Both the position numbers and the translations under genes were made by a program. A stretch of DNA of 64,000 bases, from the UHGV virus genome UHGV-0468246; one strand, 5' to 3'. Source of the DNA: a virus. Positions within the stretch are counted from its first letter, which is position 1; every line of letters begins with the position of its first letter. Shown here one piece after another: positions 3,783 through 50,019 of this stretch. The notes beneath the pieces were generated by a model that was not told the origin of the DNA, searched no databases, and saw only the letters and a program-made list of their open reading frames with translations.

Positions 3783-4226
3783 ATGGCTATCATCAAGTAC
3801 AGGGGCAGCGACGGCGTTGTCGAACTGCTCGACGTGGGTGCGCTGCTGGGGCGGGTGAGCGGCTTGGAGGCCAAGACGGCATCGTTCGAGCGGGCGACAT
3901 CGGGGATATGGAAATACGAGAAGCGCTCCGACGGCACCTGCGTCTGCGAGGGCCAGCAGACGCGCACGGTCAACATAGAGAACATATATTCGGGGAACAT
4001 CTACTACGGCGACTTCGCCGCCGTCTCGTTCCCCAGCGGGCTGTTCACCGCAGTGCCGGACGTTCGCGCGACGATTCAATCGGCACCAGTGACCGTGTGG
4101 GTCGCGACGGTCTCGAACTCGAAGCCGTCAACGTCGTCAACGCAGGCGGTGCGCCTGCTGTCGGGCGGCCCGGAGACGAGCATATCCGTCACGGTCTCCT
4201 ACCGCGCGGTCGGTCGCTGGAAGTAG
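3783..4226 (+). CDS. Paralog 3 (147 aa). Starts MAIIKYRGSDGVVELLDV.
   Basis: ORF with a ribosome-binding site. Conserved N-terminus and a distinct C-terminal domain. Confidence 0.65.
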   Translation: MAIIKYRGSDGVVELLDVGALLGRVSGLEAKTASFERATSGIWKYEKRSDGTCVCEGQQTRTVNIENIYSGNIYYGDFAAVSFPSGLFTAVPDVRATIQSAPVTVWVATVSNSKPSTSSTQAVRLLSGGPETSISVTVSYRAVGRWK

Positions 4227-8139: not shown

Positions 8140-8155
8140 TCGATTATTTTATCGA
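8140..8155 (-). promoter_or_regulatory. 16-bp palindrome TCGATAAAATAATCGA immediately 5' of the ribosome-binding site (copy 1)
   Basis: Inverted repeat TCGATTA/TAATCGA. Read on the minus strand it is followed by GAAGGAGCAAAGAC and then ATG. Nearly identical to copy 7 at 31331. Confidence 0.6.
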
Positions 8156-8527: not shown

Positions 8528-8740
8528 CTACAGCTCCGGTGCCAGATAGCACTTGCCGCCCAGCGCCTTGTACGCGCCGTATCGCTCGTCGGACATGCCG
8601 ACGTAGGAGAAGCTGCAACCTTCCAGCTCCGAACGGAGGTACTGGCGCATCTCCTCCTCGGTGCCGTACACGGCCATGACGCTCTCGAAGCCGTTGGTCA
8701 TGAGCCTCACGAGCCAGTTCCCACGATAGCCGTCCAGCAT
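8528..8740 (-). CDS. Hypothetical protein (70 aa)
   Basis: ORF. Confidence 0.35.
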   Translation of the reverse strand: MLDGYRGNWLVRLMTNGFESVMAVYGTEEEMRQYLRSELEGCSFSYVGMSDERYGAYKALGGKCYLAPEL

Positions 8741-10129: not shown

Positions 10130-10196
10130 GGTGTCTTCCTTCCTACGCCCGTCTATAGGGCGTTACGCGAAGCCCTGCGGCTTCATTCTACACGAT

Positions 10197-10240
10197 GTAA
10201 GATAAGAAGTAAAGAGAATAAATTAAGAAAAGAAATTAAG
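10197..10240 (+). repeat. AT-rich intergenic motif copy, plus orientation
   Basis: GTAAGATAAGAAGTAAAGAGAATAAATTAAGAAAAGAAATTAAG. Confidence 0.6.
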
Positions 10241-10357
10241 ATGGGCGCGGGCATGCTGCGTGTCCGAGGAGGGAAAGGCCAATGGATGCCCGTAGGCTGG
10301 GTTCGCCCGCGCCCGCACCGATTGTCTCACGTCCGGGCTGCGGGCGAAAGCCCCGTT

Positions 10358-11116
10358 TCACCGCTCGGACAAATCGAGGCGGGGAAGAATGTCGGCTGTC
10401 AGCTGGAACCCCTTCATGCATCCGAACCTGTCGGCTCCGAGCCGGTACGAGCCGAACGCGCACCCGGCGCACCCCTCGTCGCCCATGCCCCATTTGCGGA
10501 CGCATTCGCCGATGCTCGCGCATCCGCGCGCCATCCTGCACGCCGACACCACCTGCTCCGGGCTTATCGGCCTGTAGTCCCAGAGCATGCACCCGACGTT
10601 GACGATCTGCATGGCCGGTTTCTGGAAGATAGCCAAGTTGCGTATCATGTCGTGCTCCGGTGTCGCATGGACGTGGCCGTGCAGCATGAAGATCGTCTCG
10701 TTCTCGCGGTTCTTCGTGTGATGCCTGCCGTTGTAGCAGGGCATGGGGTAGTGGCTCATGAGGAACTTCATATGGTCGTGCCGCACCTCGCGGTAGTCCC
10801 GCGCGTCCTCGAACTTCACAGCGGCCTTGGCCGTGAGCCTTCCGTTGCGCATGGCGCGCCGAAGCCCGGAATCGTGGTTGCCGAACACGAGCCTGATCTT
10901 CCCGTTCAGGCGCTCGGCGATGGACGAAAGGTACTCCGGCTTGCCGCTCATGGCGAAGTCGCCGAGATGGTACACGATGTCGCCCTTGCGCACGGTTTCG
11001 TTCCACCGCCGCACAAGCTCCTCGTCCATCTCCTCGGCGGAGCCGAACGGCCTGCCGTCCATGGCGATCACGTTCTCGTGGCCGAAATGTGTGTCCGCTG
11101 TGAAGTGTATCGCCAT
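10358..11116 (-). CDS. Calcineurin-like metallophosphoesterase (Ser/Thr phosphatase family) with a Cys-rich C-terminus
   Basis: Probable start MAIHFTADTHFGHE (ATG at ~11116). Motifs DTHFGH, GDFAMSG and GNHD...GHVH match the metallophosphoesterase fold. The track ORF 10358..11245 carries an extra N-terminal extension. Confidence 0.7.
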   Translation of the reverse strand: MAIHFTADTHFGHENVIAMDGRPFGSAEEMDEELVRRWNETVRKGDIVYHLGDFAMSGKPEYLSSIAERLNGKIRLVFGNHDSGLRRAMRNGRLTAKAAVKFEDARDYREVRHDHMKFLMSHYPMPCYNGRHHTKNRENETIFMLHGHVHATPEHDMIRNLAIFQKPAMQIVNVGCMLWDYRPISPEQVVSACRMARGCASIGECVRKWGMGDEGCAGCAFGSYRLGADRFGCMKGFQLTADILPRLDLSER

Positions 11117-11149
11117 TGCCGCGTCCTCCGTCCGTCGTTCAAAAAAAAC

Positions 11150-11182
11150 GGGCGGCGGCAACCATCCATCAATCCGCCGCCC
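11150..11182 (-). terminator. Hairpin plus T8 terminator upstream of the phosphoesterase gene
   Basis: GGGCGGCGG...CCGCCGCCC stem, followed on the minus strand by TTTTTTTT (plus A8 at 11141-11148). Confidence 0.5.
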
Positions 11183-11774
11183 TTGGGAGCCGCATTGAGC
11201 GCGCGCTGGCTCCCTTCCACTTCCGGCAAAGGCTTCTAAGGTCAAGCAGCCCTACTCCCGTTCGGGAACCCAGCCGGTCGCGGCATCCGCGCTCATGATC
11301 GCCTCCGCCGCGTGCTTTGCGCCCAGCCGCACCTCGATTCAGTGGCGTAGGACTGTGCCTGTCCACCATGCACGAATAGTGCCGCCCGCCCCTATGCCGG
11401 GTCTTTCGCATAGGGTTCGATGGGCGCTCCGCCCCTCCGAACAGAGCGCGCATCGAACCTCATGCCGAAGGGAAGAGCGCGGGACGGCGGAGGAATCGAA
11501 CCGCCTGATCGCCGACCACCTCAATCAAGGCGAACCCGCCCGACGACGCTTCCCGCCCTCAACGTATCGCCCTGCCGTCGCAAGGGGTATCCAGTGGGCA
11601 TCCAACGCCGCATGCGAGCCGTCCCGCTCCCCGCAGGACGCGTTTTCGGGCTTAGGTGACTCACCCTACTTGCATCCCGCTGACAGTGCCGTTCCGGCTA
11701 TTCACAGCCTTGCAGTGAGTGGTCGGCCTGTATGCCGCATCTCAACCGACTTGACCGCAAGGCGACTGCTCGTC

Positions 11775-11849
11775 TGGCACCCCCGGTAGGAATCGAACCT
11801 ACGACCTGATTCTTAGGAGGAATCTGCCCTTCCGCTGGGCTACGGGGGT
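11775..11849 (-). tRNA. tRNA-Arg (anticodon CCT)
   Basis: Cloverleaf: acceptor ACCCCCG/CGGGGGT, U8 A9, D arm GCCC-AGCGGAAG-GGGC, anticodon arm GATTC-CTCCTAA-GAATC, T arm GTAGG-TTCGATT-CCTAC, discriminator G and an encoded CCA. Confidence 0.85.
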
Positions 11850-12086
11850 GCGTTTTCAATGTTTCGTCCGGGAGGGTGTACGGCCCTCCCGGCTCCGGGC
11901 ATCCCCGTCGCGCTTGCCCGCTCTCCTCCCTCCACGGGAGGCGCGTACATGGGCGCTCCGAACGCCGTTGGGCGGGCATTGCCCCGCCGCCGCAACGGTA
12001 CGCGTACCTCGCTCCGGCGCGTTCGTCCTTCGTGCGCGCCGCCGAGCGTCTTATCTCGCCGGTGCGTCGCCCATGTTACCACACTT

Positions 12087-12129
12087 CTTAACTCTTGTCT
12101 TAACTTTTTCTTTCTTTTTTTTATCTTAC
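12087..12129 (-). repeat. AT-rich intergenic motif copy, minus orientation, with a TGTGGTAACAT extended -10-like box at 12073-12083
   Basis: Minus-strand reading GTAAGATAAAAAAAAGAAAGAAAAAGTTAAGACAAGAGTTAAGAAGTGTGGTAACATGG. Same architecture as the copies at 19928, 25001 and 29121. Confidence 0.55.
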
Positions 12130-12138
12130 AAAAGAAAG

Positions 12139-12156
12139 GCCCGCGATTGCGGGCCG
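12139..12156 (-). terminator. Hairpin GGCCCGC-gatt-GCGGGCC with a T-rich tail, next to an AT-rich motif copy
   Basis: Stem-loop followed on the minus strand by TTTCTTTTGT. Confidence 0.5.
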
Positions 12157-12167
12157 TGGCTTCAGTC

Positions 12168-12245
12168 CGGGAGGGCGGGAATCGAACCCGCACATGCTGT
12201 ACCTGTTATGGCGCGCCCAGTGCTCTGCCGTTGAGCTACCTCCCG
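12168..12245 (-). ncRNA. tRNA-like element with acceptor stem, D arm and T arm but no canonical anticodon stem
   Basis: CGGGAGG/CCTCCCG acceptor pairing, TA at positions 8-9, D arm GCTC-AACGGCA-GAGC, T arm GCGGG-TTCGATT-CCCGC. The ~30 nt in between (containing the GGCGCGCC palindrome) cannot form a 5-7-5 anticodon arm by my reading. CCA is not encoded. Confidence 0.4.
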
Positions 12246-12426
12246 ATGCATGGGAAGCGCCGGAGGAAGGTGCAATGCGCACCGTTCGGGCGCTTCCCAA
12301 GTTCGCTGCGGGTGCCCTCGCCGTCCGCAGTCAGGATGCCCACCGATGATGACTTTCGGCATCCTCCCTCGCCCCTCTGCGCGGCCCGTTCGCAGCGGCC
12401 CGTGCTCGGAACCCGCGTTCGGGAAA

Positions 12427-12649
12427 CTACCGGATAACGGCGTCCTCCCACCGCGTACCCCGCTCGCCTCCCCTGCGAAAGTCGGCCACGGGGGTGCCTT
12501 CGTGGATGCGCGCGAGCGTCACGTCCGATTCGTCCATAGCCCTAGCCATCGAAGGCCTAGCGCCACATCCCAAGGCATCAGCTTCGTCGCTGACGGAAAG
12601 TCGAGGGCGGGGAGCTGCGGGCCGACGATGCGACGGCGCGCCCCTCATC
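12427..12649 (-). CDS. Possible small Arg-rich protein (74 aa), or part of a structured non-coding region
   Basis: AAAGGA ribosome-binding site plus ATG at 12649, immediately after palindrome copy 2. Low confidence: the surrounding 12250-12700 is GC-rich and may be non-coding RNA. Confidence 0.2.
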
Positions 12650-12672
12650 CTTTCGGGCAGAACGGCGCAACC

Positions 12673-12688
12673 TCGATTAAATAATCGA
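12673..12688 (-). promoter_or_regulatory. 16-bp palindrome TCGATTAAATAATCGA (copy 2) inside the tRNA / non-coding region
   Basis: Perfect inverted repeat, followed on the minus strand by GGTTGCGCC...AAAGGATG. Confidence 0.5.
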
Positions 12689-12756
12689 CATGTCGCATCA
12701 ACCGCCCTCGGCCTTCCGTCAGCGGGCACCTTTCGATGCCGCGCTGTTTGTCCGTA

Positions 12757-12831
12757 TGGTACGGGGTGCAGGTGTCGAACCTGCGGCCAAGGAATTATGA
12801 GTTCCCTGCTCTACCGTTGAGCTAACCCCGC
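12757..12831 (-). tRNA. tRNA-Met (anticodon CAT; initiator, elongator or Ile2 cannot be told apart by eye)
   Basis: Acceptor GCGGGGT/ACCCCGT with a G1-U72 wobble, U8 A9, D arm GCTC-AACGGTA-GAGC, anticodon arm GGGAA-CTCATAA-TTCCT, T arm GCAGG-TTCGACA-CCTGC, discriminator A, CCA encoded. Confidence 0.85.
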
Positions 12832-12995
12832 ATGGATGTCAAAGAGCGTTCAAACGACGCTTCGATGCGTTCTTCGTTGCCTTACCGCACCTATTGTGTC
12901 CAAGCATACGCCATATCGTTTGGAAAGCGCCGTATACGGTTCGGCACTTTCCCTTATATGCCGCACATCGTCGTTTGTCAGCTTGCGTCTTCCGC

Positions 12996-13409
12996 TCAAC
13001 TTTCTGCCAAGCACATCGCGAGCGTGCAAGATGTTCTCTCTCGACCGGTGCACCATTCAAGGTTCTCGACAGCGTTGTTGGCCTTGTCGCCGTCGATGTG
13101 GTTCACTTGCGGCTTGCCATCGTCGTTCGGTATGAACGCCTCTGCGACAAGCCTGTGGATGCACTTTGTTTCCGTTGCGCCCATGTTGCTCAACAGAACA
13201 AGATGGTATCCGTATGTGTTCACTCGGTCGGCAAGAATCTTTTCCGATTGCATGCGATGGAGGCTTCCATCCGCCCTGTAAATAGGGCGTTCGAGACTTT
13301 TGACGCGACCGCAACTGGATATTTGATAGCACCCTTCGCAGCCTGCTATGCCGCGCCATTCCTCCATCGCATGCACCTTCTCCACCTTGCGTTGCCTCGC
13401 AACGGGCAT
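12996..13409 (-). CDS. HNH homing endonuclease (NUMOD4 plus HNH_3 type)
   Basis: EWRGIAGCEGCYQISSCGRVKSL matches a NUMOD4 motif and VNHIDGDKANNAVENLEW matches an HNH motif. Gene GC is ~52%, below the genome, and it lies next to the tRNA genes. Confidence 0.8.
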   Translation of the reverse strand: MPVARQRKVEKVHAMEEWRGIAGCEGCYQISSCGRVKSLERPIYRADGSLHRMQSEKILADRVNTYGYHLVLLSNMGATETKCIHRLVAEAFIPNDDGKPQVNHIDGDKANNAVENLEWCTGRERTSCTLAMCLAES

Positions 13410-13420
13410 CCTATCACGTG

Positions 13421-13510
13421 TTAAGAAAAGAAGTCAAGTGAAAAGTGGGAAATATGAAGGGTATATGTAAAACAAGAATGTAAGAGAATAATTTAAGAAA
13501 AGAAGTTGAG
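13421..13510 (+). repeat. Cluster of AT-rich motif copies in the divergent intergenic region between the HNH gene and the plus-strand island
   Basis: GTTAAGAAAAGAAGTCAAGTG...GTAAAACAAGAATGTAAGAGAATAATTTAAGAAAAGAAGTTGAG, followed by a TGTAACATGG -10-like box near 13527. Confidence 0.55.
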
Positions 13511-13638
13511 ATTAAAACCGATAGCGTGTAACATGGACGGCATCGGAGCGAACGAAGCGAAGGAGCGACCATGAAGACGAACGAGACCGAGGCGCGCGAG
13601 ATGGCCGACGAGGGGATGCCGGTCGAGACGCGAAGATC

Positions 13639-19883: not shown

Positions 19884-19927
19884 AACGGCCTCCTTTCGTC
19901 CTCGTGCGATCTTACCACATTCCTTCA

Positions 19928-19975
19928 CTGTTGTCTTAACTTTTTCTCTTAATTCTTTTTTTACTTTCGTCTTTC
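19928..19975 (-). repeat. AT-rich motif copy, minus orientation, with a TGTGGTAAGAT extended -10-like box (19909-19919) and a terminator hairpin (20008-20029)
   Basis: Minus-strand reading: hairpin GGGGCGGCC-atcg-GGCCGCCCC, then TTTGCTTTTCC, then GTAAAAAAAGAATTAAGAGAAAAAGTTAAGACAACAGTGAAGGAATGTGGTAAGAT. Confidence 0.55.
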
Positions 19976-22828: not shown

Positions 22829-23741
22829 AGTTCTCGCAGATTTCGCTCCAATTTTGGATAAGCCCCTGATAGCCGTCGCGCAGGTCGCGCAGCGTGCCCT
22901 TCTCCTCGTTCTCGCGCATCAGCACGTCGCGGTACAGCTCCTCGTCCCGGTACATCCGGACGTTCTCGTCTATGAGGCGGCTGATGACGCTGGGGTCGAG
23001 CGCGTCAAGCTCCCAGCATTCGTAGCCGAACCGCTCGATGTAGCCCTGCGCGCGGCTGTCCGACAGCTTCGTCGGGTTCGGCGGAGGCCCGAACTCCTCG
23101 ATCTGGTCGAGGTTCAGCGCGAGGCGGCGGAACTCAACGTCGTCGGCACTGAACAGCTCCAAGCGCGCCACGATGTCGCGGCTCATGTCCTTGCCGCTGG
23201 GGTCGTGGTCGCCGAGGTGCAGCAGCACCGCGTGCTGCCCAGCGTCGCAGCGCCGCTTCAGGCGCATGGCCGCTCCCCACAGCTCGCTCTGGCTGGTGTA
23301 GCCACGGCACGAGAAGCACGCAACGTCCAGCTTGTCGCTGATCTGCTCCACGATGCCTATGAGCGCGTCCTTCTCCACCCACACCTCGACGTAGTTCTCC
23401 TGCCCCTCCCAGTAGTCGATGTGGTACTGGCGGGCTATCGCGTCGATGATCTCCTGCGGCTCCTCCCAGTGCGGGCGGCGGCGCAGGTTGCGCGTGCGGT
23501 CTTCGATGGCGTGCCAATCGACGAGGCCCGCCAAGCGCGCGTCGTTGATGAGGTTGCCGAGGTTCTTGTAGCTGCGGATGTTGTTCGGGATGATGTCGCG
23601 CGACACCATCTGGTAGTAGAGCTGGCGCAGCGTCAGGCCGTACCCCTGCGCCTCGTACTCGGCCACTATGCCGTTGGCTATGCCGATGAGTTCCAGCTTG
23701 TCGTCGCGGAACGTCTTCTCGATGTACGCTATCTTAGGCAT
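22812..23741 (-). CDS. Spo11 / topoisomerase VI subunit A-like protein (mini-A, 309 aa): CAP tyrosine motif plus Toprim
   Basis: LRQLYYQMVS matches the R(D/Q)(I/L)YY catalytic-tyrosine motif. VEVWVEKDALIGIV carries the Toprim glutamate (vvEKd). HLGDHDPSG matches the Toprim DxDPxG motif. It overlaps the stop of the upstream GHKL gene by 8 nt. Confidence 0.6.
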   Translation of the reverse strand: MPKIAYIEKTFRDDKLELIGIANGIVAEYEAQGYGLTLRQLYYQMVSRDIIPNNIRSYKNLGNLINDARLAGLVDWHAIEDRTRNLRRRPHWEEPQEIIDAIARQYHIDYWEGQENYVEVWVEKDALIGIVEQISDKLDVACFSCRGYTSQSELWGAAMRLKRRCDAGQHAVLLHLGDHDPSGKDMSRDIVARLELFSADDVEFRRLALNLDQIEEFGPPPNPTKLSDSRAQGYIERFGYECWELDALDPSVISRLIDENVRMYRDEELYRDVLMRENEEKGTLRDLRDGYQGLIQNWSEICENYDIYQ

Positions 23742-24948
23742 CCTCGCCCTCCTTCTCCAAAAGCCCGTCTATCTCGTCGCGTATGAGGTGCATGCCGAAG
23801 AACCGCAGGTCGTCCGAGTTGTCGATGATCTCGCGAAGCTCGGCGCGCGCACGCTTCGACAGGCGCGGCTGCCCTTTGAGCCAGACGAGAATCTTCTTGT
23901 AGTCGCTCTTGCCGAAGGCGTTGACTGCGGCCTCCCTGCTGGCGTTCGACGACACCTTCGCCTCCAAGTCCTCGAACTCGTCGAGCGCGTCGTCGGCGAT
24001 GGCGATTATCTTGGAGACGATCTTGCTCTCCTCGTGGAACGCGCTCGCCTCGGCGCTGCCGCCGAGAACCTGCCACATGCCCTTCGTCCCGACGAACGTG
24101 CCCTCGTCAAGCCCGTTCTTCTCGAAGTAGTAGCGCTTGAAGCCCTCGCACTGGTCTTCGTCTATCTCGTCGAGGACGGCGCTTGCGTCGGACACGTCCA
24201 GATGCTTCTCGCCGAGCGAGTTGACGAGCAGGCTCACGTCCCCGCACGACGTGAGGGCGCGGGCCGTAAGCTCCTTCAGCTCGTAGTGGTTGATCGCCTT
24301 GCGGTCTCGGTCGAGGCTCACGTGCTCCGGCAGGAAGTCGTAGCCGTACGCGAAGCCGGTGTCCTCCTGCACGAACAGGCCGCCGACGTAGAACTTGCCC
24401 TTGTAGCGGCTCTCCAACATGATCGTCCCGTACTCGCTCTCGCGCTTCGCGCCGATGTCGCGGCCCATGAAGCGTTCGAGGGCTATGAACCTGTCCCCGA
24501 AGGAGCGCATCATGGCGGGCGAGATGCCGCCGATGCGGAACTCCGTGAACTCGCCGCCCGGAACGCCGGTCTCCTCCACGTCGATCTGCAACGATTCCTC
24601 GCCGAACGTCTCGGACAGGCGGAACTCCGGTGTCCAAGTCTCCGCGTCGGTGACGACCTTCACCGGCTTGCGCTCGCGCGTCAGCACCAGAAGCGCCAGC
24701 TTGTATCCCTCGCCGTACTTCCCGATGTAGCGCTCGTCGTCCTTGCCCGATTCGCCGAGCAGGAGCGTCGATGTCTTCAGTCGCGCGCCGTCGGTGAGGA
24801 TGGACAGCGTTTCGCGGTCGTACGACACGGACACCTCCGCCCCGTCCGCCTTCTGGTCGATGGCGTTCTGCAAAATCTCGCGGACTGCCTCCTCCACGCC
24901 CCAGCCGCTCACGTACTTGGGCGACAGGCTCAACTCGATGGTCTTCAT
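23734..24948 (-). CDS. GHKL (Bergerat-fold) ATPase, topoisomerase VI subunit B-like (404 aa)
   Basis: N-box EILQNAIDQ and G2 box IGKYGEGYKLAL. Lies immediately upstream of, and translationally overlapping, the Top6A-like gene. Preceded by ribosome-binding site, palindrome, -10-like box, AT-motif and terminator. Confidence 0.55.
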   Translation of the reverse strand: MKTIELSLSPKYVSGWGVEEAVREILQNAIDQKADGAEVSVSYDRETLSILTDGARLKTSTLLLGESGKDDERYIGKYGEGYKLALLVLTRERKPVKVVTDAETWTPEFRLSETFGEESLQIDVEETGVPGGEFTEFRIGGISPAMMRSFGDRFIALERFMGRDIGAKRESEYGTIMLESRYKGKFYVGGLFVQEDTGFAYGYDFLPEHVSLDRDRKAINHYELKELTARALTSCGDVSLLVNSLGEKHLDVSDASAVLDEIDEDQCEGFKRYYFEKNGLDEGTFVGTKGMWQVLGGSAEASAFHEESKIVSKIIAIADDALDEFEDLEAKVSSNASREAAVNAFGKSDYKKILVWLKGQPRLSKRARAELREIIDNSDDLRFFGMHLIRDEIDGLLEKEGEDA

Positions 24949-25000: not shown

Positions 25001-25050
25001 CCTTAACTCTTGTCTTAACTTTTTCTTTCTTTTTTTATCTTACAAAAGAA
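25001..25050 (-). repeat. AT-rich motif copy, minus orientation, beside the terminator hairpin at 25053-25075
   Basis: Near-identical to the copy at 12087 (CTTAACTCTTGTCTTAACTTTTTCTTTCTTTTTTTATCTTACAAAAGAAA). Confidence 0.6.
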
Positions 25051-25052
25051 AA

Positions 25053-28939: not shown

Positions 28940-29120
28940 GCCGTCGTGCTCGCCTTCGTCGGCCACAAGGCACTTGTCGTCCCCCGTCGGCGACGTAGAC
29001 GAGGAACATGGCGCTCGCGCGCAATACCTCCTTCTCGTCCCCGTCGCCCATGCCCGTGATGCTGATCTCCAAAACGGTCTCCTTCCGCTCGGTTTCGCGA
29101 TACGGTCATCTTACCACAAG

Positions 29121-29155
29121 TCTTACACTTTTGTCTTAACTTTTTCTTTTACAAA
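29121..29155 (-). repeat. AT-rich motif copy, minus orientation, with a TGTGGTAAGAT -10-like box at 29108-29118
   Basis: Minus-strand reading GTAAAAGAAAAAGTTAAGACAAAAGTGTAAGACTTGTGGTAAGATGACCG. Confidence 0.55.
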
Positions 29156-42945: not shown

Positions 42946-45296
42946 TATCGGATGGTGCGCGGGTTGCCGTTGTCGTCCCTCATGAGGTCGATGAGGGCTT
43001 GGTACTTCAGCTCCCATCGCAGCTTGTAGCCCATCCTCCCGTAACGTCGGGTCTTCAGCGTGACGAGCTTCATCACGCTTATGTTCTCCTCCTCCTCGGT
43101 GCACCCCAGCGCCCAGATAACGTCCGCAAGCTGCTCGACAACCGACGAGTGCGCGATGTCCTGCGCGGTGCCTATGCCGTCCTTCGCGTTCTTAACGCCC
43201 TCTCGCGTCATCTGGTGGAGCAGCAGCACCGGCATCTTCTGGTTGTCCGAAGGCGACGCTATGAGGTTCTTCAGCGTGTAGATGCAGTCAGCCGTCTGCT
43301 CGTAAAGCGACTGAATCTTCGGGTTCTTCTTCACGAACTGAAGCTGGTCGATCACGACGAAGTTGCATCCGCACATCTTGGCGTTCTGGATGAGGGCGCT
43401 CGGCGTGCGCTCCGGCATGGGAGGCTGGTCGATGACGAGCTTTCCGGGCAGGCCGCCTATCTCGTCGCGCGCCCTGTCGAGGGCCTGAACGTAGCGCGGC
43501 ATCTCGATGCCCTTCAGGAACTTATCGACGGGAACCACGATCTGATCGCGGTTGACGTGCAGAAGCTCCGTGCGCCGCCCGATGTCGTAGGGGTCTAGCT
43601 CCAAGCTGGCGAAGTAGACGTTCCACCCTTGCCGCGCCGCCTCCAAGGCGGTCTTGGCGGCGAACCACGTGTTGTGCGTCACGATGTAATCGTCCGTCAG
43701 GTAAAGATGCTCCGGGTCGTCAACCATGATGCATTGCATCTCCGTGTCGAAGCCCAAGTCCTCGACATCGACTATCGAGACGTAGCGGTGAAGGAACTTG
43801 CGATTCGCAACGGCATCGTGCGCGCGCTCGCGACATTCGTGCTTGCCGGATGACGTGATGCTTTCGGCGGTCATCACCGACACAACCCATTCGTCCGACT
43901 TACCGGCACGGCGTTTCATTCGCGCCCGCGCGCACATTCCCAGCGAGCGGCACAACGACACGACATCATCAGCAAGCCTCTTTGAAGCCGTCGAGTAGGT
44001 CTTGCCTCCGTTGCCCATCATGCACCCGTCCGTGTCCATAAGGCCGCGAAGCAGGTCAAAACGCTGCTCTGCCGATGCTCCAAGGTAGTCGGCTGGAATG
44101 AACTTCTCATAAGATTTCACGTTCAGCCCAAGATCGACGACCGCGCTTGAAAGCGGGTTCATGTTCCACTTCGGCAGGTACGATATTCCATAAGAGCAGT
44201 TATCGGCGTTGACCTTCTTGACAGCGTAGTCTTCGCCCAGTCTCTCGCAAAGACTGTTCACCACATCGTCCTCGACGCTCGAAAACGCAAGCGAGCCTCC
44301 GGGAACCTGTGATAGGCATCCGTCGCCGATGAGCACGCCGAGCACGTAGGGGTCGATTGGAAGCTCCTTGCGCGACATCTCAACGGCATCATTGACCGGC
44401 ACCCTCCAACGATACGCCTTGCCGCTCATCAGGCCACGCGCGATCATCTCGCCGAGCGTCATGGTGCGCTCCGAAACGCAAGGAATGCCGTTCGCCTTCG
44501 TCTTGTACGCCGTCGTCCACAAATGGTCGATGCAGCAATCGGCATGTCGCCCGTCGGCAAGATGCACCCGGTACGCACGCTTTTTGCCCTGCGGGTACAC
44601 TCCTATAACCCGTGCAAGCGTGCCTCGGCGCGTTCGCACCTTGTCGCCTACGCGAATCTCGCCCATCGGCTTGAACCCATGCTCCGTGAGAACCTTCGAG
44701 TAAAGCGGCTGGGCCTTGCCCTTGCCCGTCGGGGCGACGAGAACCGCAAGCTCGCCGGGCTTGATGCCGCCCGTCTCCACGTTCAGCTCCTCGAAGGGGT
44801 ACGGCGCGCCGACCTCGGCCAGCTTCGCGTTCGCCATCTTCTTGTACAGCTCCATGCTCTCGCCGTCGCCGTACACGATCTTCTGCTGCCTCGGCGTTAC
44901 GTTGTCAACGATCACGGACAGGGTGTCGCGCAGCATCTTCACCTTCTGCTCCGCGTCAAGCCCCATGTTCTCAACGCCCATGCGCAGCGCGTCGGTAAGC
45001 TGGAACTCGCAGTACTGGTCTTTGAGCTTCTTCGACAGGTACGACGGCGCGGCACCTGCCGCCCCCTGCGTCAGCGCGTCGTAGTCGGGGAACCGCTCGC
45101 GCAGCACGTCGAGCGTGGGCGCTCCCCTCATGGCCGCGAAGTTCAGGAAGTAGTCGCTGGCGAAGCTGTACATCTCCGCCATCTTCGGGTCGGCGAACTG
45201 CGACGCGTCGATGCCCGACTGGTAGTAGACCATGAGGGCGTTCGGGTCGGTCAAGGTCGCGGCGATCTCCGTCTCTACGTCGAGGGCCATTACCAT
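42945..45296 (-). CDS. dnaB: DnaB-family replicative helicase interrupted by an intein
   Basis: Start MVMALDVE (ATG at 45296). The first ~210 aa of the track ORF 42945..45926 are an Arg-rich shadow of the upstream gene. Joining VLVAPTGKGK to TWFAAKTALE restores a Walker A GKGKT. Confidence 0.8.
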   Translation of the reverse strand: MVMALDVETEIAATLTDPNALMVYYQSGIDASQFADPKMAEMYSFASDYFLNFAAMRGAPTLDVLRERFPDYDALTQGAAGAAPSYLSKKLKDQYCEFQLTDALRMGVENMGLDAEQKVKMLRDTLSVIVDNVTPRQQKIVYGDGESMELYKKMANAKLAEVGAPYPFEELNVETGGIKPGELAVLVAPTGKGKAQPLYSKVLTEHGFKPMGEIRVGDKVRTRRGTLARVIGVYPQGKKRAYRVHLADGRHADCCIDHLWTTAYKTKANGIPCVSERTMTLGEMIARGLMSGKAYRWRVPVNDAVEMSRKELPIDPYVLGVLIGDGCLSQVPGGSLAFSSVEDDVVNSLCERLGEDYAVKKVNADNCSYGISYLPKWNMNPLSSAVVDLGLNVKSYEKFIPADYLGASAEQRFDLLRGLMDTDGCMMGNGGKTYSTASKRLADDVVSLCRSLGMCARARMKRRAGKSDEWVVSVMTAESITSSGKHECRERAHDAVANRKFLHRYVSIVDVEDLGFDTEMQCIMVDDPEHLYLTDDYIVTHNTWFAAKTALEAARQGWNVYFASLELDPYDIGRRTELLHVNRDQIVVPVDKFLKGIEMPRYVQALDRARDEIGGLPGKLVIDQPPMPERTPSALIQNAKMCGCNFVVIDQLQFVKKNPKIQSLYEQTADCIYTLKNLIASPSDNQKMPVLLLHQMTREGVKNAKDGIGTAQDIAHSSVVEQLADVIWALGCTEEEENISVMKLVTLKTRRYGRMGYKLRWELKYQALIDLMRDDNGNPRTIR
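43659..44714 (-). mobile_element. Intein (~352 aa) in the DnaB P-loop with a LAGLIDADG homing-endonuclease domain
   Basis: Begins with Ala (AQPLYSKVLTEHG...) right after GKGK. Contains LGVLIGDGC and LLRGLMDTDGC LAGLIDADG-like motifs. Ends ...YIVTHN followed by Thr. Confidence 0.7.
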
Positions 45297-46231
45297 ATCC
45301 TCCCGCCGCGTCGGCGCTCGCGCGCTTTCTCGCGCATGTCCTCGCCGTCCACGCGCACGAGGTCGAAGCTCTCCGTGAACAACGATAGGACGTACTTGTT
45401 GTAGGCGGTCTCCAACCCCGAAGGGCACGACAGGTTCGTCGTGACGATGGTGGGCCGCGACTGCTGCGTGCGCACGCGCAGAAGGTTCTCGATCTGCCCT
45501 ATGGCGTAGTCGGTGCCCTTCGCGCCGAAGCCTCCCTCTATCTCCTTGCCGAGGTCGTCTAGGACGAGGACGCGGGCAGCGTCTATCTTGCGCTTGTACC
45601 ACTTCGCGTACTTCGCGTTGTTCCACCCCCGCTTCGTGTTCTCGATGTAGTCCTTGGCCGTGGTCATGTAGCACTCGATGCCGCGCCGCACGGCCTCCTT
45701 CAGGGCGAAGGAGGCGAGCATCGTCTTCCCCGTGCCAGCCTTGCCGAACATGACGAACCCGCGCCCTTCGAGCATGTTCACGTCGAGCGCGTCGATGTAT
45801 CCCTTCACGAACGCCTGCGCGTTCCGGTCTCCGAAATAGTCGTTCCAGTTCAAGCGCTGGTAGGTGAGGCCGATGCCCGCGTTCAGGTAGTGCTTGTAAC
45901 GCTGTAGCTGGTCGGCGCAGTTGCACCGCATCAGCGCGCCGTCAACGACCACCGTGCCGTCCACCCCCTCGCCGCAGTTCTTCATGCAGGTGGGGCAGAA
46001 GTACAGGTGGCTCGCTCCGAGGTCGGGGTAAACCTCGTACAGCTCGTCAGCGTCGTCCTGCGACAGCGCCATGTCCACGAGGGCCGAATCTTCGAGCCTC
46101 CCCGTCACATCCATAGGTTCTCCTTGCCCTCGTCCGCCTTCAGCTCCGTCAGCGCAAGATCGGTGAGCCACCGGAATCGCTTCGAGAACATTTCCTTGCC
46201 AACGGGGTTCCCGCGGTTGCGCCCCTTCCAC
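45290..46231 (-). CDS. DnaC / IstB-like AAA+ helicase loader
   Basis: Walker A FGKAGTGKT, Walker B VLVLDDLG, TTNL motif. Its stop overlaps the dnaB start within ATGGTAATGG. Confidence 0.7.
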   Translation of the reverse strand: MEGAQPREPRWQGNVLEAIPVAHRSCADGAEGGRGQGEPMDVTGRLEDSALVDMALSQDDADELYEVYPDLGASHLYFCPTCMKNCGEGVDGTVVVDGALMRCNCADQLQRYKHYLNAGIGLTYQRLNWNDYFGDRNAQAFVKGYIDALDVNMLEGRGFVMFGKAGTGKTMLASFALKEAVRRGIECYMTTAKDYIENTKRGWNNAKYAKWYKRKIDAARVLVLDDLGKEIEGGFGAKGTDYAIGQIENLLRVRTQQSRPTIVTTNLSCPSGLETAYNKYVLSLFTESFDLVRVDGEDMREKARERRRGGRIW

Positions 46232-46467
46232 TTCGAGAAGACGAACCGAGTTATCCTCGCCGCGTCCTCCGCGCCGTAGTCGCGGACGAACTGCTGCACG
46301 CTGCGCATCACCGGCGCGGTGAACATGGTGCGCTGCTGCATGGGGTCTACGTTGAAGAACTCGATGTAGCCCTTGCGGAAGATGTCGAACACCTTCCTCG
46401 CGTCGTCGTCCGTCGCGTATATGTTATGCGGTGTACCCGCTATCGCCGCCAAGTCCACTGGCATCAC
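46105..46467 (-). CDS. Hypothetical protein (120 aa)
   Basis: ORF. Confidence 0.4.
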   Translation of the reverse strand: MMPVDLAAIAGTPHNIYATDDDARKVFDIFRKGYIEFFNVDPMQQRTMFTAPVMRSVQQFVRDYGAEDAARITRFVFSKWKGRNRGNPVGKEMFSKRFRWLTDLALTELKADEGKENLWM

Positions 46468-46915
46468 ACACCTTGCCTATAACGTCTGCGGCCTCCTCCG
46501 GCCCCAGCTCCAACACAACCCCTCCGAAAGGCCCCCACAGGCTCTCTCCGACCTTGAAAACGAAGTCCAGAGGGAAGGCACCGTAAACCGCCTCATGCTC
46601 CTCTAGCAGCGTCCTGTACGGCTCGCCGCCGTCCGTGAGGTCTGCAACGTCGAACGGCGTGTCCCGGTGCACGACCAGCTGCAACGGGCGGTACAGATGG
46701 GCGAGGCCGCGCACGGCCTCGTTGACCATCATCGCGTCGCATAGGAGCTGGTTCACCGAGAAGGCCGCTGCGGCCACGTCGCCCATGGCGAACGGGGTCT
46801 TCCTGCGGTACACCTCGAACACGCTGTTCGCATGCCTCACGCAGGGGACGAACCGGCGGGCGAACGCCGCGCGCTCCAACGCGTCCCCTCCCGTCACGGC
46901 CACGTTGAGAATCAT
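46424..46915 (-). CDS. Hypothetical protein (163 aa)
   Basis: ORF. Confidence 0.4.
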   Translation of the reverse strand: MILNVAVTGGDALERAAFARRFVPCVRHANSVFEVYRRKTPFAMGDVAAAAFSVNQLLCDAMMVNEAVRGLAHLYRPLQLVVHRDTPFDVADLTDGGEPYRTLLEEHEAVYGAFPLDFVFKVGESLWGPFGGVVLELGPEEAADVIGKVCDASGLGGDSGYTA

Positions 46916-47223
46916 CGCCGCGCCGCCGCCTGCTGCTGCGCGAGCATCGCCTTGTTGGCGATCTTCTGCGCGATGCTGTCTATCTCCTCCTCGCAGATGG
47001 CCTCGCAGTCATGGTTCATCTGGTGCATGACGGCGGCGAGGTATTCCGTTGGCGGGTAGCCGGGGCCGATCTTGGCCGTCAGGGCCGCGCCCTTCTTTAT
47101 CCAGTCGCCGTTGGGGGACTGGATGGAGAAGTTCACGCTTATCTCCGCCTCGACATGGTACACGCCGAGCTGCGCCGTGGTCTGCGGCTGGCCCTGCTGC
47201 GGCGCGGTCTGCTGCCCCTCCAT
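46912..47223 (-). CDS. Hypothetical protein (103 aa)
   Basis: ORF. Confidence 0.4.
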   Translation of the reverse strand: MEGQQTAPQQGQPQTTAQLGVYHVEAEISVNFSIQSPNGDWIKKGAALTAKIGPGYPPTEYLAAVMHQMNHDCEAICEEEIDSIAQKIANKAMLAQQQAAARR

Positions 47224-47224
47224 G

Positions 47225-47845
47225 CTACTTCACCACCAGAGACGATGCGATCTTGCCTTGCGCGGCGGCCTTCTCGTCGGCCTTGGAGAACTGGCGCAGC
47301 ATGGTCTTGAAGGTGGCGGGGACGCTCACGGAGACCTCCGGGTCGTCGAACAGCTCCTTCGGCACCTTCAGGTTCTGGCCGAGCATCGCCTGCTCCAACT
47401 TCGCCTCGTCGATCTCGCGGGGCATCGAGACGGGGCGCGTGACCGACTTGAAAGCGTCCCAAGCCCTGCCGCTGCGGTCGTTGATGTCCTCTTCGTAGAG
47501 GCGGCACAGACCGGCGAGAAGCCCCTGCTCGGTGATGTCAACGGCCTCCTTGCGCGCGAACTCGCGGCACACCTTCTTCTGCTCCTCCATGCCGTACACG
47601 GACACGGGGGTTCCGTTGTCGGTGTACTCCTCCGTGAGGCGCGCCGCCTCTTCCTTCATGGCCTCGTATTCGAGTTCGGCGATCTCCGCCGCCTTCTTCT
47701 TCTCGGCGTACAGCTTCACGAAGGCGTTTGCCTTCGCCGGGTCTGACAGGTCTTTGGGCTGGTAGTCTTGGATTGCGAGGACTTCCTTGCCGACCTTGAT
47801 GATCTCTGCCATCGTTCCATCTCCTTTTGTTGGTTGCAATGACAA
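47225..47845 (-). CDS. Hypothetical protein (206 aa)
   Basis: ORF behind AAGGAGATGG. Confidence 0.45.
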   Translation of the reverse strand: MSLQPTKGDGTMAEIIKVGKEVLAIQDYQPKDLSDPAKANAFVKLYAEKKKAAEIAELEYEAMKEEAARLTEEYTDNGTPVSVYGMEEQKKVCREFARKEAVDITEQGLLAGLCRLYEEDINDRSGRAWDAFKSVTRPVSMPREIDEAKLEQAMLGQNLKVPKELFDDPEVSVSVPATFKTMLRQFSKADEKAAAQGKIASSLVVK

Positions 47846-47873
47846 GTCATATGTTAAACGGTCTCGCGACCGT

Positions 47874-47909
47874 TGTAAAGATAAAAGTTAAGAATAAAAG
47901 TTAAGACTT
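47874..47909 (+). repeat. AT-rich motif copy, plus orientation
   Basis: GTAAAGATAAAAGTTAAGAATAAAAGTTAAGAC. Confidence 0.5.
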
Positions 47910-48249
47910 ACTGCACGACATCCCATGTCTCGCCGCCGTCTGCGGACTGCGTGATGAAGGTGCTCGGCGGGAAGTTCGCGACGGCGTAGTCAACCATCGC
48001 CTTCAGCTTGGACGGGTCTCGGTCGAATATCTCGAAGCCGATCTGCGGGGCGCTCCCCGACTGCGCCATCACGGCCAGAAGCTCCAAGCCGGTGCAGGTG
48101 ATGCAGTCCCACGAGAAGGCCAGCCAGCCGATGCCGTGGTTAAGCTCTACGGCGCGGGGGTCGTCCGTCCACACGTAGTTCGTCCTCATGTTCTCCGGCG
48201 TGCGCGCCAGCCACACGTTGATGCGCGCCGCTACGAATCTGCGTCCCAT
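47908..48249 (-). CDS. Hypothetical protein (113 aa)
   Basis: ORF. Confidence 0.4.
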   Translation of the reverse strand: MGRRFVAARINVWLARTPENMRTNYVWTDDPRAVELNHGIGWLAFSWDCITCTGLELLAVMAQSGSAPQIGFEIFDRDPSKLKAMVDYAVANFPPSTFITQSADGGETWDVVQ

Positions 48250-48258
48250 TCCCGCTCC

Positions 48259-50019
48259 TTAAAAGCCGAGTAAGTATTCCATGTCGTTCATCATATCATT
48301 CTCGCCAGCCGCTTCATACTCGCCTATGCCCATCTCCTGCGCCAGCGCCTTGCGGCCCGCCATGGTCTCCTCTATGCGCTCCTCGATTGTGTCGCGCGTC
48401 ACGAAGCGGTATATGGTCACGCAGTCGTGCTTGGAGCTGATGCGGTGGATGCGGTCGCTGCGCTGCTGGTAGCGCGAATGCAGCGGCGGCGTGTCGTAGT
48501 GGAGCAGGTAGCGCCCCTCCGGAAGGTCTATGCCCTCGCGCCCAGCGTCGGACATGAGCATGAGGTTGTAGGTGCTCCCCTCTCGGAAAGACCGCTCGAT
48601 CACGCCGCGCTGCGCGTCCGTCTGCCCTCCCATGTACATGAGCGGGCGGTAGCGCTCCAAGTGCTTCGACAGCGGTATGAGGCAGTTGTGCGTGTGCTGG
48701 GCGAACACCACCATCTTCTCGCCGCCTCCCATGATCTGGTCTACCAGCTCCTCGGTCGCCTTCAGCTTCTCGCTGTTCTTAGACCCCGCAAGCTCCGGCG
48801 CGTGGCGCTGCACTATCCGGCGAATCTCGCGCAGCTGCTCGTCCCAGAACGGGTTGTCGCCTTCGTAGCGCCACACGTCCTCCATCAGAAGAACCTCCGG
48901 CATCCTGCACACGCGCTGAAGCATGAGCATGAACAGCGAGCGCTGCTTCTCGTCCCGGTCTACGCTGCCGCCGTACGCGGCGATCTCGTCGTACAGGGCG
49001 CGCTCCGGCGGCGACAGCTCCAAGTCAAGCACGATCTCCTGACGCTTGGGGAACTCCGCCGCTATCTCCGGGTTGGTCTTCTCCGCCATGAACACGCGGG
49101 GAGCCGAAAGCAGCCCCATAACGTCGAGGTTCTGGAAGCCGAGGTAGCGGTTCCACATGTCGCGCTCGCCGTTGCCGTACGTGAAGTAGTGCTCGAAGTC
49201 CTTCACGGTGCCGTAGATCGAGGCATCGAGGATGCGCCATTCGTTGTAGTAGTCCTCCGGGCTTTTCTCCAACGGCGTGGCGGTCAGGCCGCACTTGAAC
49301 CTGATGTCGAGCGTCTTTTCCAGCTTCTTGAACTTCTGGTGGCGGGGCCGCGCTCGGCTCTTCAACCGCTGAACCTCGTCGTACACGAAGAAAAGGTGCT
49401 TCCCGCGCAGGGCGCGCTCTATGAAGTTCCAGTCCTTCGTGTTGGTTCGGTCGTAGTTGACGACCCATATGTCGGAATCGTCGGTGTTGTACCACGCTTG
49501 GCGCTTCGCGGGCTTCGCGTTGCGGTTGACCGTGCCGACCGTCAGGCTCGTCGCCTTCTCCAACCACGGCACCCACTGCTTGACGAGCGGGGCCGGGCAG
49601 AACACCACGATCTTATCGACGGTGCCACGGTCGAACTCGCGCACGGCGAGCATCGTCCCCATGGCCGTCTTCCCCGTCCCGCACGAGCATATGAGCATGG
49701 TGTTGGGAACTCCGTCGAGCGCGTGGCCGCATCTGTTCTGAAACCTCTTCAGCTCGAACGGGAGCGTGAGGGACGGAGATTCGATGGGCGATTCGTCGCG
49801 CACCTGCCGCAAGCGCTCCGCCGCCCGCTCCGTGAACATGACCTCCATCGTCCTCGCCATGGTCTGGCACAGCTCGACGATGCGGTCGGAGTTCTTCAGC
49901 AGATGGTCGCGGGCGAGTATCCCGCTGTGGACGAACGGCATCAGCGCCGCCTCGTCGCCGTTGATCTTGAACTGCCCTCGGAACTCCTCGGACAGGTCAA
50001 CGCAGACCGTCTCTTTCAA
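48259..50019 (-). CDS. SNF2 / DEAD-like superfamily 2 helicase
   Basis: Walker A CSCGTGKT, DEAH-like YDEVQ, motif III LTATP, and C-terminal helicase motifs (...RIHRI...). Confidence 0.75.
   Translation of the reverse strand: MKETVCVDLSEEFRGQFKINGDEAALMPFVHSGILARDHLLKNSDRIVELCQTMARTMEVMFTERAAERLRQVRDESPIESPSLTLPFELKRFQNRCGHALDGVPNTMLICSCGTGKTAMGTMLAVREFDRGTVDKIVVFCPAPLVKQWVPWLEKATSLTVGTVNRNAKPAKRQAWYNTDDSDIWVVNYDRTNTKDWNFIERALRGKHLFFVYDEVQRLKSRARPRHQKFKKLEKTLDIRFKCGLTATPLEKSPEDYYNEWRILDASIYGTVKDFEHYFTYGNGERDMWNRYLGFQNLDVMGLLSAPRVFMAEKTNPEIAAEFPKRQEIVLDLELSPPERALYDEIAAYGGSVDRDEKQRSLFMLMLQRVCRMPEVLLMEDVWRYEGDNPFWDEQLREIRRIVQRHAPELAGSKNSEKLKATEELVDQIMGGGEKMVVFAQHTHNCLIPLSKHLERYRPLMYMGGQTDAQRGVIERSFREGSTYNLMLMSDAGREGIDLPEGRYLLHYDTPPLHSRYQQRSDRIHRISSKHDCVTIYRFVTRDTIEERIEETMAGRKALAQEMGIGEYEAAGENDMMNDMEYLLGF

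Follow-up and report, generated by a model that had tools for sequence, protein, structure and literature searches.

The viral genome UHGV-0468246 was analysed as one strand of 64,000 nucleotides (nt), hereafter the window. Comparative analysis of the interval between an HNH endonuclease gene and a phosphoesterase gene in this window points to two large structured RNAs, RNA-A and RNA-B, each starting directly 3' of a canonical transfer RNA (tRNA) gene, and to a third, tRNA-like gene (the odd element) whose anticodon arm is replaced by a conserved sequence element. Judging from the sequence comparisons set out below, RNA-A and RNA-B very probably exist as functional structured RNAs; with less assurance, we also favor assigning them to new structured RNA classes. 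We read the locus as a non-coding RNA region of a virulent Eggerthella myophage, organized as two minus-strand transcription units, and put the probability of this reading at roughly 0.6. An earlier note, made from the letters alone, had described the interval as an island of two tRNAs, a tRNA-like element and T-arm-like fragments beside an HNH gene. That observation is sound; the candidate identities it offered are mostly wrong, and the two large structured RNAs were missed.

Eggerthella phage LE2-3 (MW679026.1; 112 kb), whose isolation host was Eggerthella lenta DSM 2243, matches positions 10300-13600 from end to end at 98.7% identity; a literature search returned no paper on LE2-3. Apart from LE2-3, members of the phage collection shared only tRNA- or HNH-sized pieces with this interval. 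The LE2-3 record annotates the locus as an HNH nuclease, tRNA-Met, a 40-amino-acid hypothetical protein, 'tRNA-Cys', tRNA-Arg, a small hypothetical protein, and a phosphoesterase. The minus strand of the window carries every real feature of the locus, the principal ones being:

12757..12831, minus strand: canonical tRNA-Met(CAT) (ARAGORN; Rfam 66.1 bits), CCA encoded at 12759..12757
12247..12756, minus strand: RNA-A, a large structured non-coding RNA of ~450-510 nt, directly 3' of tRNA-Met
12167..12245, minus strand: odd tRNA-like gene (Rfam tRNA 48.8 bits), no CCA encoded, 'tRNA-Cys' in LE2-3
11775..11849, minus strand: canonical tRNA-Arg(CCT) (ARAGORN; Rfam 64.7 bits), CCA encoded
11141..11774, minus strand: RNA-B, a large structured non-coding RNA of ~630 nt, starting directly after tRNA-Arg

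The GC content at third codon positions is ~0.9 in the genes of the window but flat, at 0.55-0.77 in all three phases, across 11160-12870, which is the sole low-periodicity stretch longer than 600 nt within the 64 kb. This bears out the earlier statement that the island has no credible open reading frame (ORF). The long ORFs listed in 11160-12870 and the two small GenBank coding sequences are what GC-rich non-coding DNA typically yields. The latter, LE23_20 and LE23_21 of LE2-3, correspond to window positions 12427-12549 and 11078-11239. Public annotation and gene callers have placed hypothetical proteins of up to 202 amino acids over RNA-A and RNA-B (also in the relatives L047 and L050), and such spurious proteins have entered protein databases. 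Both GenBank annotations, of the odd element as tRNA-Cys and of hypothetical proteins over the RNAs, look wrong.

ARAGORN and Rfam at gathering thresholds (29 bits for RF00005) agree on exactly three tRNA-type genes in the window, all on the minus strand. Two of them, tRNA-Met and tRNA-Arg, have a canonical anticodon arm (5-bp stem, 7-nt loop), as the earlier note had seen. Rfam 15 in its most permissive mode, run on the window and on each RNA alone, gave tRNAs only, with no transfer-messenger RNA (tmRNA), RNase P, intron, GOLLD, ROOL, YrlA or riboswitch match; for RNA-A searched alone at E<=10, no RNase P, intron, GOLLD or ROOL family was listed.

Conserved folds of RNA-A and RNA-B

No close relative was found in IMG/VR, where the phosphoesterase relatives were all distant. 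Four further lineages were reached through ENA and Logan assemblies that encode homologues of the adjacent phosphoesterase, with protein identities to the window enzyme of 59% (L041), 55% (L042, L043 and L044), 56% (L047) and 56% (L048, partial); this route and a metagenome motif scan also gave many near-identical variants. The island lies upstream of the phosphoesterase gene in all relatives. Its order in L047 is that of the window, and in L042 it reads tRNA-Met, spacer A, tRNA-Met2, tRNA-Tyr, odd tRNA, tRNA-Asn, terminator, promoter, leader, tRNA-Arg and spacer B; L041 contains only a leader hairpin, tRNA-Arg, an HNH_3 gene of another kind, and spacer B. Thus, the three extra tRNAs around the odd tRNA of L042 (a second Met, Tyr and Asn) and its 64-amino-acid leader ORF (together at L042 8326-8655 and 9061-9255) show that island content is fluid while RNA-A, RNA-B and the odd tRNA persist. 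The tRNA-Arg of L041 is 100% identical to that of the window. Two tRNA-Arg(CCT) alleles differing at 16 of 75 positions (11775-11849) occur among phages that are otherwise 96-99% identical (L078, L060, L065, L075 and L109-L111), a pattern that looks like cassette replacement of one tRNA gene.

Both RNAs are conserved to at least the level of the adjacent phosphoesterase gene, which shares 70-73% identity with its relatives as DNA (55-59% as protein). RNA-A is 75-78% identical in L042 and L047 and 91% identical in L065; RNA-B is 75-79% identical in the four other lineages over ~640 nt. Structures were predicted with RNAalifold from alignment A1 for RNA-B (seven sequences) and A2 for RNA-A (four sequences from three lineages). 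The RNA-B model has 141 pairs in ~24 helices, and 98.1% of the alignment cells form standard pairs; the RNA-A model has 129 pairs, with 97.1% of cells paired. Compensatory pairs number 27 in RNA-B, against 12.5+-2.3 in column shuffles, and 26 in RNA-A, against 15.8+-2.4, neither count being reached in any of 500 shuffles. Sliding the partners by 1-3 columns reduced the counts to 0-4 and 2-6, respectively. Many invariant pairs in both RNAs are G-U, which would be A-C mismatches on the opposite strand; the fold is thus an RNA fold of the minus-strand transcript, the strand of the tRNAs.

The conserved core of RNA-A spans ~12746..12304, and a lineage-specific 3' hairpin reaches ~12250. A variable insert, replaced in L042, holds a copy of a palindrome (at 12674-12687) that recurs in the window. 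RNA-B ends in a conserved hairpin (11182..11150), followed in the window lineage by U8 (11148..11141), a U-run absent from the other lineages. Exact-motif scans of IMG/VR for RNA-A and for the 5' part of RNA-B gave chance matches in coding DNA only, and a search for extra lineages through the spurious ORF over RNA-B recovered near-identical variants only. Within RNA-B three substructures could be delimited:

11479..11627, minus strand: internal tRNA-like domain, a 10-11 bp helix (GCGGGACGGC/GCCGUCCCGC) abutting a T-arm-like hairpin
11413..11461, minus strand: 16-bp hairpin (helix 13), strands GGGTTCGATGG and GAGGTTCGATG, with 3 compensatory pairs
11225..11275, minus strand: three-way-junction module of ~50 nt, GGCUGGGUUCCCGAACGGGAGUAGGG-hairpin-UUAGAAGCCUUUGCC (covariance model R1)

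The hairpin of the tRNA-like domain (11505..11489) reads GGCGG-UUCGAUU-CCUCC in the window and GAUGG-UUCGAUU-CCAUC in other lineages. Its 3' side runs into the 10-11 bp helix, for which the three long versions have the partner strand 110-112 nt upstream. This helix is perfect and covarying in four lineages of differing sequence: GCGGGACGGC/GCCGUCCCGC in the window, GCGGGAGCCGC/GCGGCUCCCGC in L042, GCGAGGGCGGC/GCCGCCCUCGC in L047, and, read by eye, GCGGGAGCCG/CGGCUCCCGC in L041. The domain measures 149-150 nt in three lineages and 77 nt in L041 (again by eye). Because the same 3' strand makes this perfect covarying helix with the upstream strand, helix 11 of the RNAalifold model (columns 320-329 with 413-422) is probably wrong. 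A T-arm stacked on an acceptor-like helix also accounts for the weak tRNA-Sec-model match in RNA-B (19.9 bits, Rfam). Of the isolated T-arm-like segments listed in the earlier note, the one at ~11497-11506 (minus strand) is therefore a real conserved hairpin, 11505..11489, that closes this domain; the two others, at 11405-11425 (plus) and 11447-11460 (minus), turned out to be the two strands of the single 16-bp hairpin at ~11413-11461.

The most conserved block of RNA-B, GGUUCCCGAAYGGGAGUAGGG, lies in a module that also occurs on its own elsewhere. Exact-pattern matches to this 21-mer numbered 28 in a metagenome collection (10 variants of the window phage and 18 other contigs), 10 in IMG/VR, and 14 in GTDB genomes against an estimated chance expectation of ~1 for the genome set; 11 of the 14 were in Corynebacterium, the others in Rothia and elsewhere. 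Most copies form a stand-alone unit of ~95 nt with its own promoter-like -10 box and the core GGUUCCCGAAUGGGAGUAGGG, found in Corynebacterium and Rothia genome or prophage-like contigs and in AT-rich phage contigs. One contig carries it near a serine recombinase in a lysogeny region, another at a prophage edge, and in L088 it begins 5 nt after tRNA-Trp, inside another non-coding stretch. A covariance model (R1) built from 25 stand-alone copies matched RNA-B at 11275..11225 with 35.3 bits (E=1.3e-7), and the same site in L041, L042, L047 and L048; the match to the core is partly by construction, because the seeds were found with the 21-mer from RNA-B. Independent of that seed are the agreement of the flanking GGC...AGAA...CCUUUGCC and the three-way-junction layout, and the RNA-B module fits the junction core with its GGG/UCC helix, UUCCC-GAAY-GGGAG hairpin, variable hairpin and AGAA strand. 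In the stand-alone copies an 11-bp closing stem doubles as an intrinsic terminator and the unit has its own promoter, features that the RNA-B module lacks; the latter is closed by a different covarying 5-bp helix (CCGGC/GCCGG, UCCGG/CCGGA, CGGCG/CGCCG and others). The stand-alone unit had no Rfam match, and its motif sequence had no literature match. It may represent an undescribed, widely spread phage small RNA family; the module is uncatalogued and is common to phage and prophage-like sequences of very different base composition. Its loci (L051-L102, e.g., L090 at ~3855-3950 and L085 at ~8608-8702, both minus, and L088 at 3906-3961) have the invariant core CUGGGUUCCCGAAUGGGAGUAGGG and a heavily covarying 11-bp closing stem followed by a U-run.

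A tRNA-like gene with an 18-nt loop

The element described earlier as 78 nt with good acceptor, D and T arms but no 5-7-5 anticodon arm holds up as a third tRNA-like gene, and the suggestion of a tRNA with a non-canonical anticodon region was the one candidate identity that fared well. It scores above the RF00005 gathering threshold, as do its orthologues in L042 (55.2 bits) and L047 (50.3 bits), and ARAGORN labels it 'tRNA-???' at 12246..12165, with a 4-base 'anticodon'. The body comprises a 7-bp acceptor, a D stem of 4 bp whose loop contains GG, a variable loop of 5 nt, and a T stem of 5 bp capped by a UUCGAUU loop. In place of the anticodon arm stands a 24-nt element, CUGGGCGCGCC-RY-AACAGGUACAG, in which a 3-bp CUG/CAG stem encloses 18 nt (against 11 in a tRNA) that include GGCGCGCC; the Rfam tRNA model skips these 18 nt.

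Comparison of 13 copies showed a cloverleaf that is 100% paired, with compensatory changes in the L042 and L047 orthologues in the acceptor (G4-C69 to A-U) and the D stem (C13-G22 to U-A) and one U-A to U-G change in the short stem. Twenty-two of the 24 arm positions are identical across lineages. The RY dinucleotide varies, all four combinations being seen (AU, GU, GC and AC), and beyond it the sole difference is an A-to-G change in the L049 copy that retains the pair as a wobble. Hypervariability of the dinucleotide was considered and rejected: the 79-nt element shows 3 segregating sites in a set of 11 close relatives, which does not exceed the level in the DNA around it (1-10 per 100 nt once the replaced tRNA-Arg cassette is set aside), so that RY is read as two unconstrained positions and not as a target of diversifying selection. 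Between the window and L042 the odd element is 86% identical and tRNA-Met 81%; being as conserved as tRNA-Met, it is no pseudogene.

The arm showed no more folding propensity than its shuffles (z = -0.1 to +2.1) and is therefore taken to be a largely unpaired, sequence-conserved loop. No conserved complement to this loop was found in the island or the window, and an exact-motif scan of IMG/VR for it gave chance matches in coding DNA only. Dimerisation through the GGCGCGCC palindrome was also considered, but the cofold gain of -13.7 kcal/mol was, because of domain-swap artefacts, not clearly above that of canonical-tRNA controls (-7.5 to -10.7). The 3' end is likewise unusual: CCA is encoded in all eight canonical tRNAs read in the window and L042, and the odd element lacks it in three lineages, the next bases being ACU, UCU or AAA.

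By sequence likeness the arm resembles an initiator/Met arm with two insertions, GGGC[U]CAUAAC[CC] (compare an initiator-type tRNA in L019); this is a resemblance only, which hints at an initiator/Met origin. Exaptation from a Met or initiator-type tRNA is the most likely origin of the odd element, and a non-decoding role for it is likely. That it is instead a working decoder, either a frameshift or four-base suppressor or an intron-bearing tRNA matured by cleavage and the RtcB ligase that the phage encodes, is unlikely. The 4-base anticodon proposed by ARAGORN, the Met-like ...C-CAU-AA... of the window allele, the likeness of the arm to the initiator arm of L019 (GGGC..CAUAAC), the presence of RtcB, and the 'tRNA-Cys' call by the LE2-3 annotators would all fit a decoder. 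Against it, brute-force removal of 3-12 contiguous nt from five alleles gave at best 4 of 5 stem pairs with no U33, and never a canonical arm; an intron was therefore rejected, as no excision leaves a 5-bp stem with a 7-nt loop. Moreover, the would-be anticodon bases vary among near-identical phages, so that the amino acid would change, and CCA is never encoded although all neighbouring canonical tRNAs have it. In a review of non-canonical tRNAs, even these have 7-nt anticodon loops and 5-6 bp stems, and an arm of this size does not appear (PMC7609411). The odd element shares normal acceptor, D and T arms with tRNA-Pyl, tRNA-Sec-like, allo-tRNA and mitochondrial types, but differs from the described ones in its 3-bp stem, its 18-nt loop with little self-structure and its lack of an encoded CCA.

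Expanded-arm tRNA look-alikes may be a wider phage phenomenon. Viral contigs sharing the D arm have tRNA-like genes with oversized anticodon arms at L005 3987-4067 (minus) and L006 349-434, the latter with an 8-bp stem and a 15-nt loop, and an oversized-arm 'tRNA-???' lies 486 nt upstream of tRNA-Gly in L004 (2225-2302) and L007 (1555-1632).

Regulatory elements and neighbouring genes

The remaining features of the locus are three elements between the odd element and tRNA-Arg and two protein genes at its borders:

12128..12155, minus strand: intrinsic terminator from a terminator scan, GGCCCGCAAUCGCGGGCC then a U-rich tail, directly after the odd element and kept in L042 and L047
12080..12130, minus strand: AT-rich promoter-like cassette, GTTAAGA-N5-GTTAAGAAG, then TGnTAACAT
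11850..12079, minus strand: leader 'spC', 76% identical over 173 nt in L042
12996..13409, minus strand: HNH homing-endonuclease ORF of 137 amino acids (Pfam NUMOD4 9.6e-10, 39 bits; HNH_3 1.8e-9, 37.5 bits; PHROGs HNH families)
10358..11116, minus strand: calcineurin-like phosphoesterase gene (Pfam Metallophos_2; phrog_547), downstream of RNA-B

The strict match to the AT-rich cassette is unique in the window, against 0 expected, and four further copies lie at ~25002-25051, 19916-19962, 29115-29149 and 10196-10241; copies are also present in L042 and L043. The phage promoter motifs reported inside the island are accordingly real repeated elements, and so is the palindrome, CGATTAWWTAATCG, of which the window has 9 copies against 0 expected (at 8141, 12674, 24964, 28925, 29337, 31332, 39690, 42886 and 61350). 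It is often within ~200 nt of an AT-rich cassette, and is probably the operator of a phage regulator. The terminator would end a first transcription unit and the cassette would start a second. In the leader, a conserved 9-bp hairpin with a variable loop, CCGGGAGGG-N7-CCCUCCCGG (~11870-11894, minus), precedes tRNA-Arg by a short distance in three lineages, its counterparts being at L042 8918-8945 and L041 6046-6070 (93% identical in L041); it may help to process or stabilise the second unit.

Like free-standing HNH homing endonucleases near phage tRNA genes, the NUMOD4 and HNH_3 gene abuts the island, which confirms the adjacent HNH gene of the earlier note. The window ORF stops at 12996, with the C-terminal part encoded in a different frame (13056..12850); LE2-3 differs by 2 bp at 13035-13036, which there joins the two pieces into a single frame reaching 12850. 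A pseudogene, a programmed frameshift or a sequencing error may lie behind the split, and either version could be functional. In L041 an HNH_3 gene of another kind is inserted between tRNA-Arg and RNA-B. HNH genes thus sit at differing positions across lineages with the RNAs undisturbed; they are passengers and leave the conserved RNA structures unaccounted for.

Four variants (L059, L077, L054 and L075) lack codons 3-191 of the phosphoesterase gene, equivalent to window positions ~10545-11110, and all four have an intact RNA-B; L112 is a further variant that has lost most of the gene. A role for the enzyme in RNA repair was considered and set aside, as it gave generic matches only (phrog_547, Aquifex aq_1665). 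Just outside the window LE2-3 encodes an RtcB RNA ligase (Pfam, 210 bits), which fits a tRNA-centred infection strategy but does not alone explain RNA-A, RNA-B or the odd element. Its coding sequence is at 23222-24445 of the record. The 'tRNA synthetase' label of another, at 45222-48335, looks unreliable, since its Pfam matches were to intein and Hint domains only, all below threshold.

Alternative readings, proposed mechanism and known systems

The position of RNA-B directly upstream of the phosphoesterase gene on the same strand, the hairpin and U8 at its end in the window lineage, which look attenuator- or terminator-like, and the use of the closing stem as a terminator by stand-alone relatives of its 3' module would suit a long cis-acting 5' leader or attenuator of the phosphoesterase operon, perhaps together with leader spC. 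We regard this as unlikely. RNA-B is kept where the phosphoesterase is deleted, which argues that it is not merely a leader of that gene; in addition, the U-run is absent in other lineages, ~630 nt and ~24 helices are far above the size of known bacterial leaders, and RNA-B is more conserved than the gene it would control. A function at the DNA level, as an origin, packaging site or operator array, would account for the CGATTAWWTAATCG copy in RNA-A and for the promoter cassettes in the island, but it is very improbable as the cause of the conservation: the palindrome sits in the variable insert that is replaced in L042, pairing is kept by compensatory changes, and the conserved G-U pairs work on the minus-strand transcript only.

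The earlier note had proposed ARAGORN and Rfam covariance searches as a check and had reasoned that, if these returned only tRNAs, the rest of the island would be decayed tRNA pseudogenes. Only tRNA-type matches were returned, yet the spacers are conserved and covarying. Decayed tRNAs or homing-endonuclease scars could explain the T-loop-like strings, the weak tRNA-Sec-model match and the HNH genes in or beside the island. They would not explain conservation that equals or surpasses the neighbouring gene's, the 26-27 compensatory pairs in each RNA, or a domain whose length holds at 149-150 nt while its sequence changes. The supposed fragments sit in conserved covarying helices, and HNH positions differ by lineage without disturbing the RNAs, so that this origin, which the note had also put forward, is highly improbable. 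A permuted or degenerate tmRNA, its other candidate, an RNase P RNA, or a group I or II intron has less still to recommend it. The T-arm-like hairpin stacked on a long helix does recall the tRNA-like domain of tmRNA, likewise set inside a much larger structured RNA. In RNA-B, however, the domain is internal, with 10-11 Watson-Crick pairs, without the G-U alanine identity pair at the third position, and with no CCA after it. ARAGORN, which covers tmRNA, found none, and the Rfam results at E<=10 contained no family of tmRNA, RNase P or intron, including those for which RNA-A or RNA-B was the only query; no tag-like reading frame was noted, although no dedicated search was made for one.

The reading of the locus as a non-coding RNA region with two minus-strand transcription units is therefore preferred. 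In it, the first unit would comprise, in order, the HNH gene, tRNA-Met, RNA-A, the odd tRNA-like RNA and the intrinsic terminator, and the second the phage promoter cassette, the short structured leader, tRNA-Arg, RNA-B and the terminal hairpin. The flanking tRNAs and the odd tRNA-like RNA would be built-in processing signals, the tRNAs thus serving double duty: RNase P cuts at tRNA 5' ends, together with 3'-end trimming, would release RNA-A and RNA-B with defined ends, and the released RNAs would act in trans during infection. The odd element, having kept its L-shaped body, would be handled by tRNA enzymes and would display its 18-nt conserved unpaired loop as a binding surface for a putative partner. 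We hold this processing and trans-acting model, which draws on analogy, tentatively, and as somewhat less probable than the arrangement in units on which it builds.

Several observations count against the preferred reading. Transcript ends, processing and stability of RNA-A and RNA-B are inferred only. The comparisons cover about five lineages (three for RNA-A), all of them Eggerthella-type phage contigs, so that few independent events underlie the covariation, and each structure was tested on the alignment from which it had been predicted. L041 has RNA-B but neither RNA-A nor the odd element at this locus; in L042 other tRNAs separate RNA-A from the odd element, so that definition of the RNA-A 3' end does not specifically require the latter. 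A binding role for the 18-nt loop has to reckon with the lack of a complementary partner reported above, and, given the palindrome in RNA-A, some of the region may have a DNA-level function as well. Finally, because no model matched, the analogy with GOLLD and ROOL draws on context and size.

GOLLD and ROOL are phage and prophage RNAs often found near tRNA islands; a Met-tRNA precedes GOLLD env-38, and the GOLLD linker sometimes contains tRNAs (PMC12286853, PMC5737381). Like these RNAs (>400-800 nt, many helices), RNA-A and RNA-B are large, multi-helix (129 and 141 pairs) and phage-encoded, and they too adjoin tRNAs, RNA-A directly 3' of tRNA-Met and RNA-B directly 3' of tRNA-Arg. On the other hand, neither family's Rfam model matched at E<=10 in the window, L044, L047 or each RNA alone (no positive control was run). 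The host phylum also differs, the host here being a Coriobacteriia member of Actinomycetota, and RNA-B has an internal tRNA-like domain and a junction module common to small RNAs. By analogy, then, the claim is of the same setting as GOLLD and ROOL, with no membership in either family.

The pairing of long RNAs with tRNA-shaped elements has precedents in mascRNA at the 3' end of MALAT1 and in mitochondrial tRNA punctuation. Here also tRNA-shaped elements flank long non-coding RNAs, whose ends RNase P and RNase Z could therefore define; those systems, however, are eukaryotic or organellar, and the 18-nt loop of the odd element is too conserved for a mere cleavage handle.

In the fullest version of this reading, which we consider doubtful as a whole, RNA-A and RNA-B would found two new classes of ornate phage RNA, tRNA-punctuated and trans-acting, the odd tRNA would be a loop-presenting decoy or adaptor, and all of them would belong to a tRNA-centred counter-defence that includes RtcB. 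If so, RNA-A and RNA-B might form RNA-only assemblies like those of GOLLD and ROOL, or scaffold host translation or tRNA machinery. The locus also offers a natural tRNA scaffold with a foreign 18-nt loop. To our knowledge, few large structured bacterial or phage RNAs have been described (GOLLD, ROOL, OLE, HEARO and raiA), and function is settled for none of them. The island adds two large-RNA candidates; as LE2-3 and its host Eggerthella lenta DSM 2243 can be cultured, the question of why such RNAs adjoin phage tRNA genes becomes directly testable.

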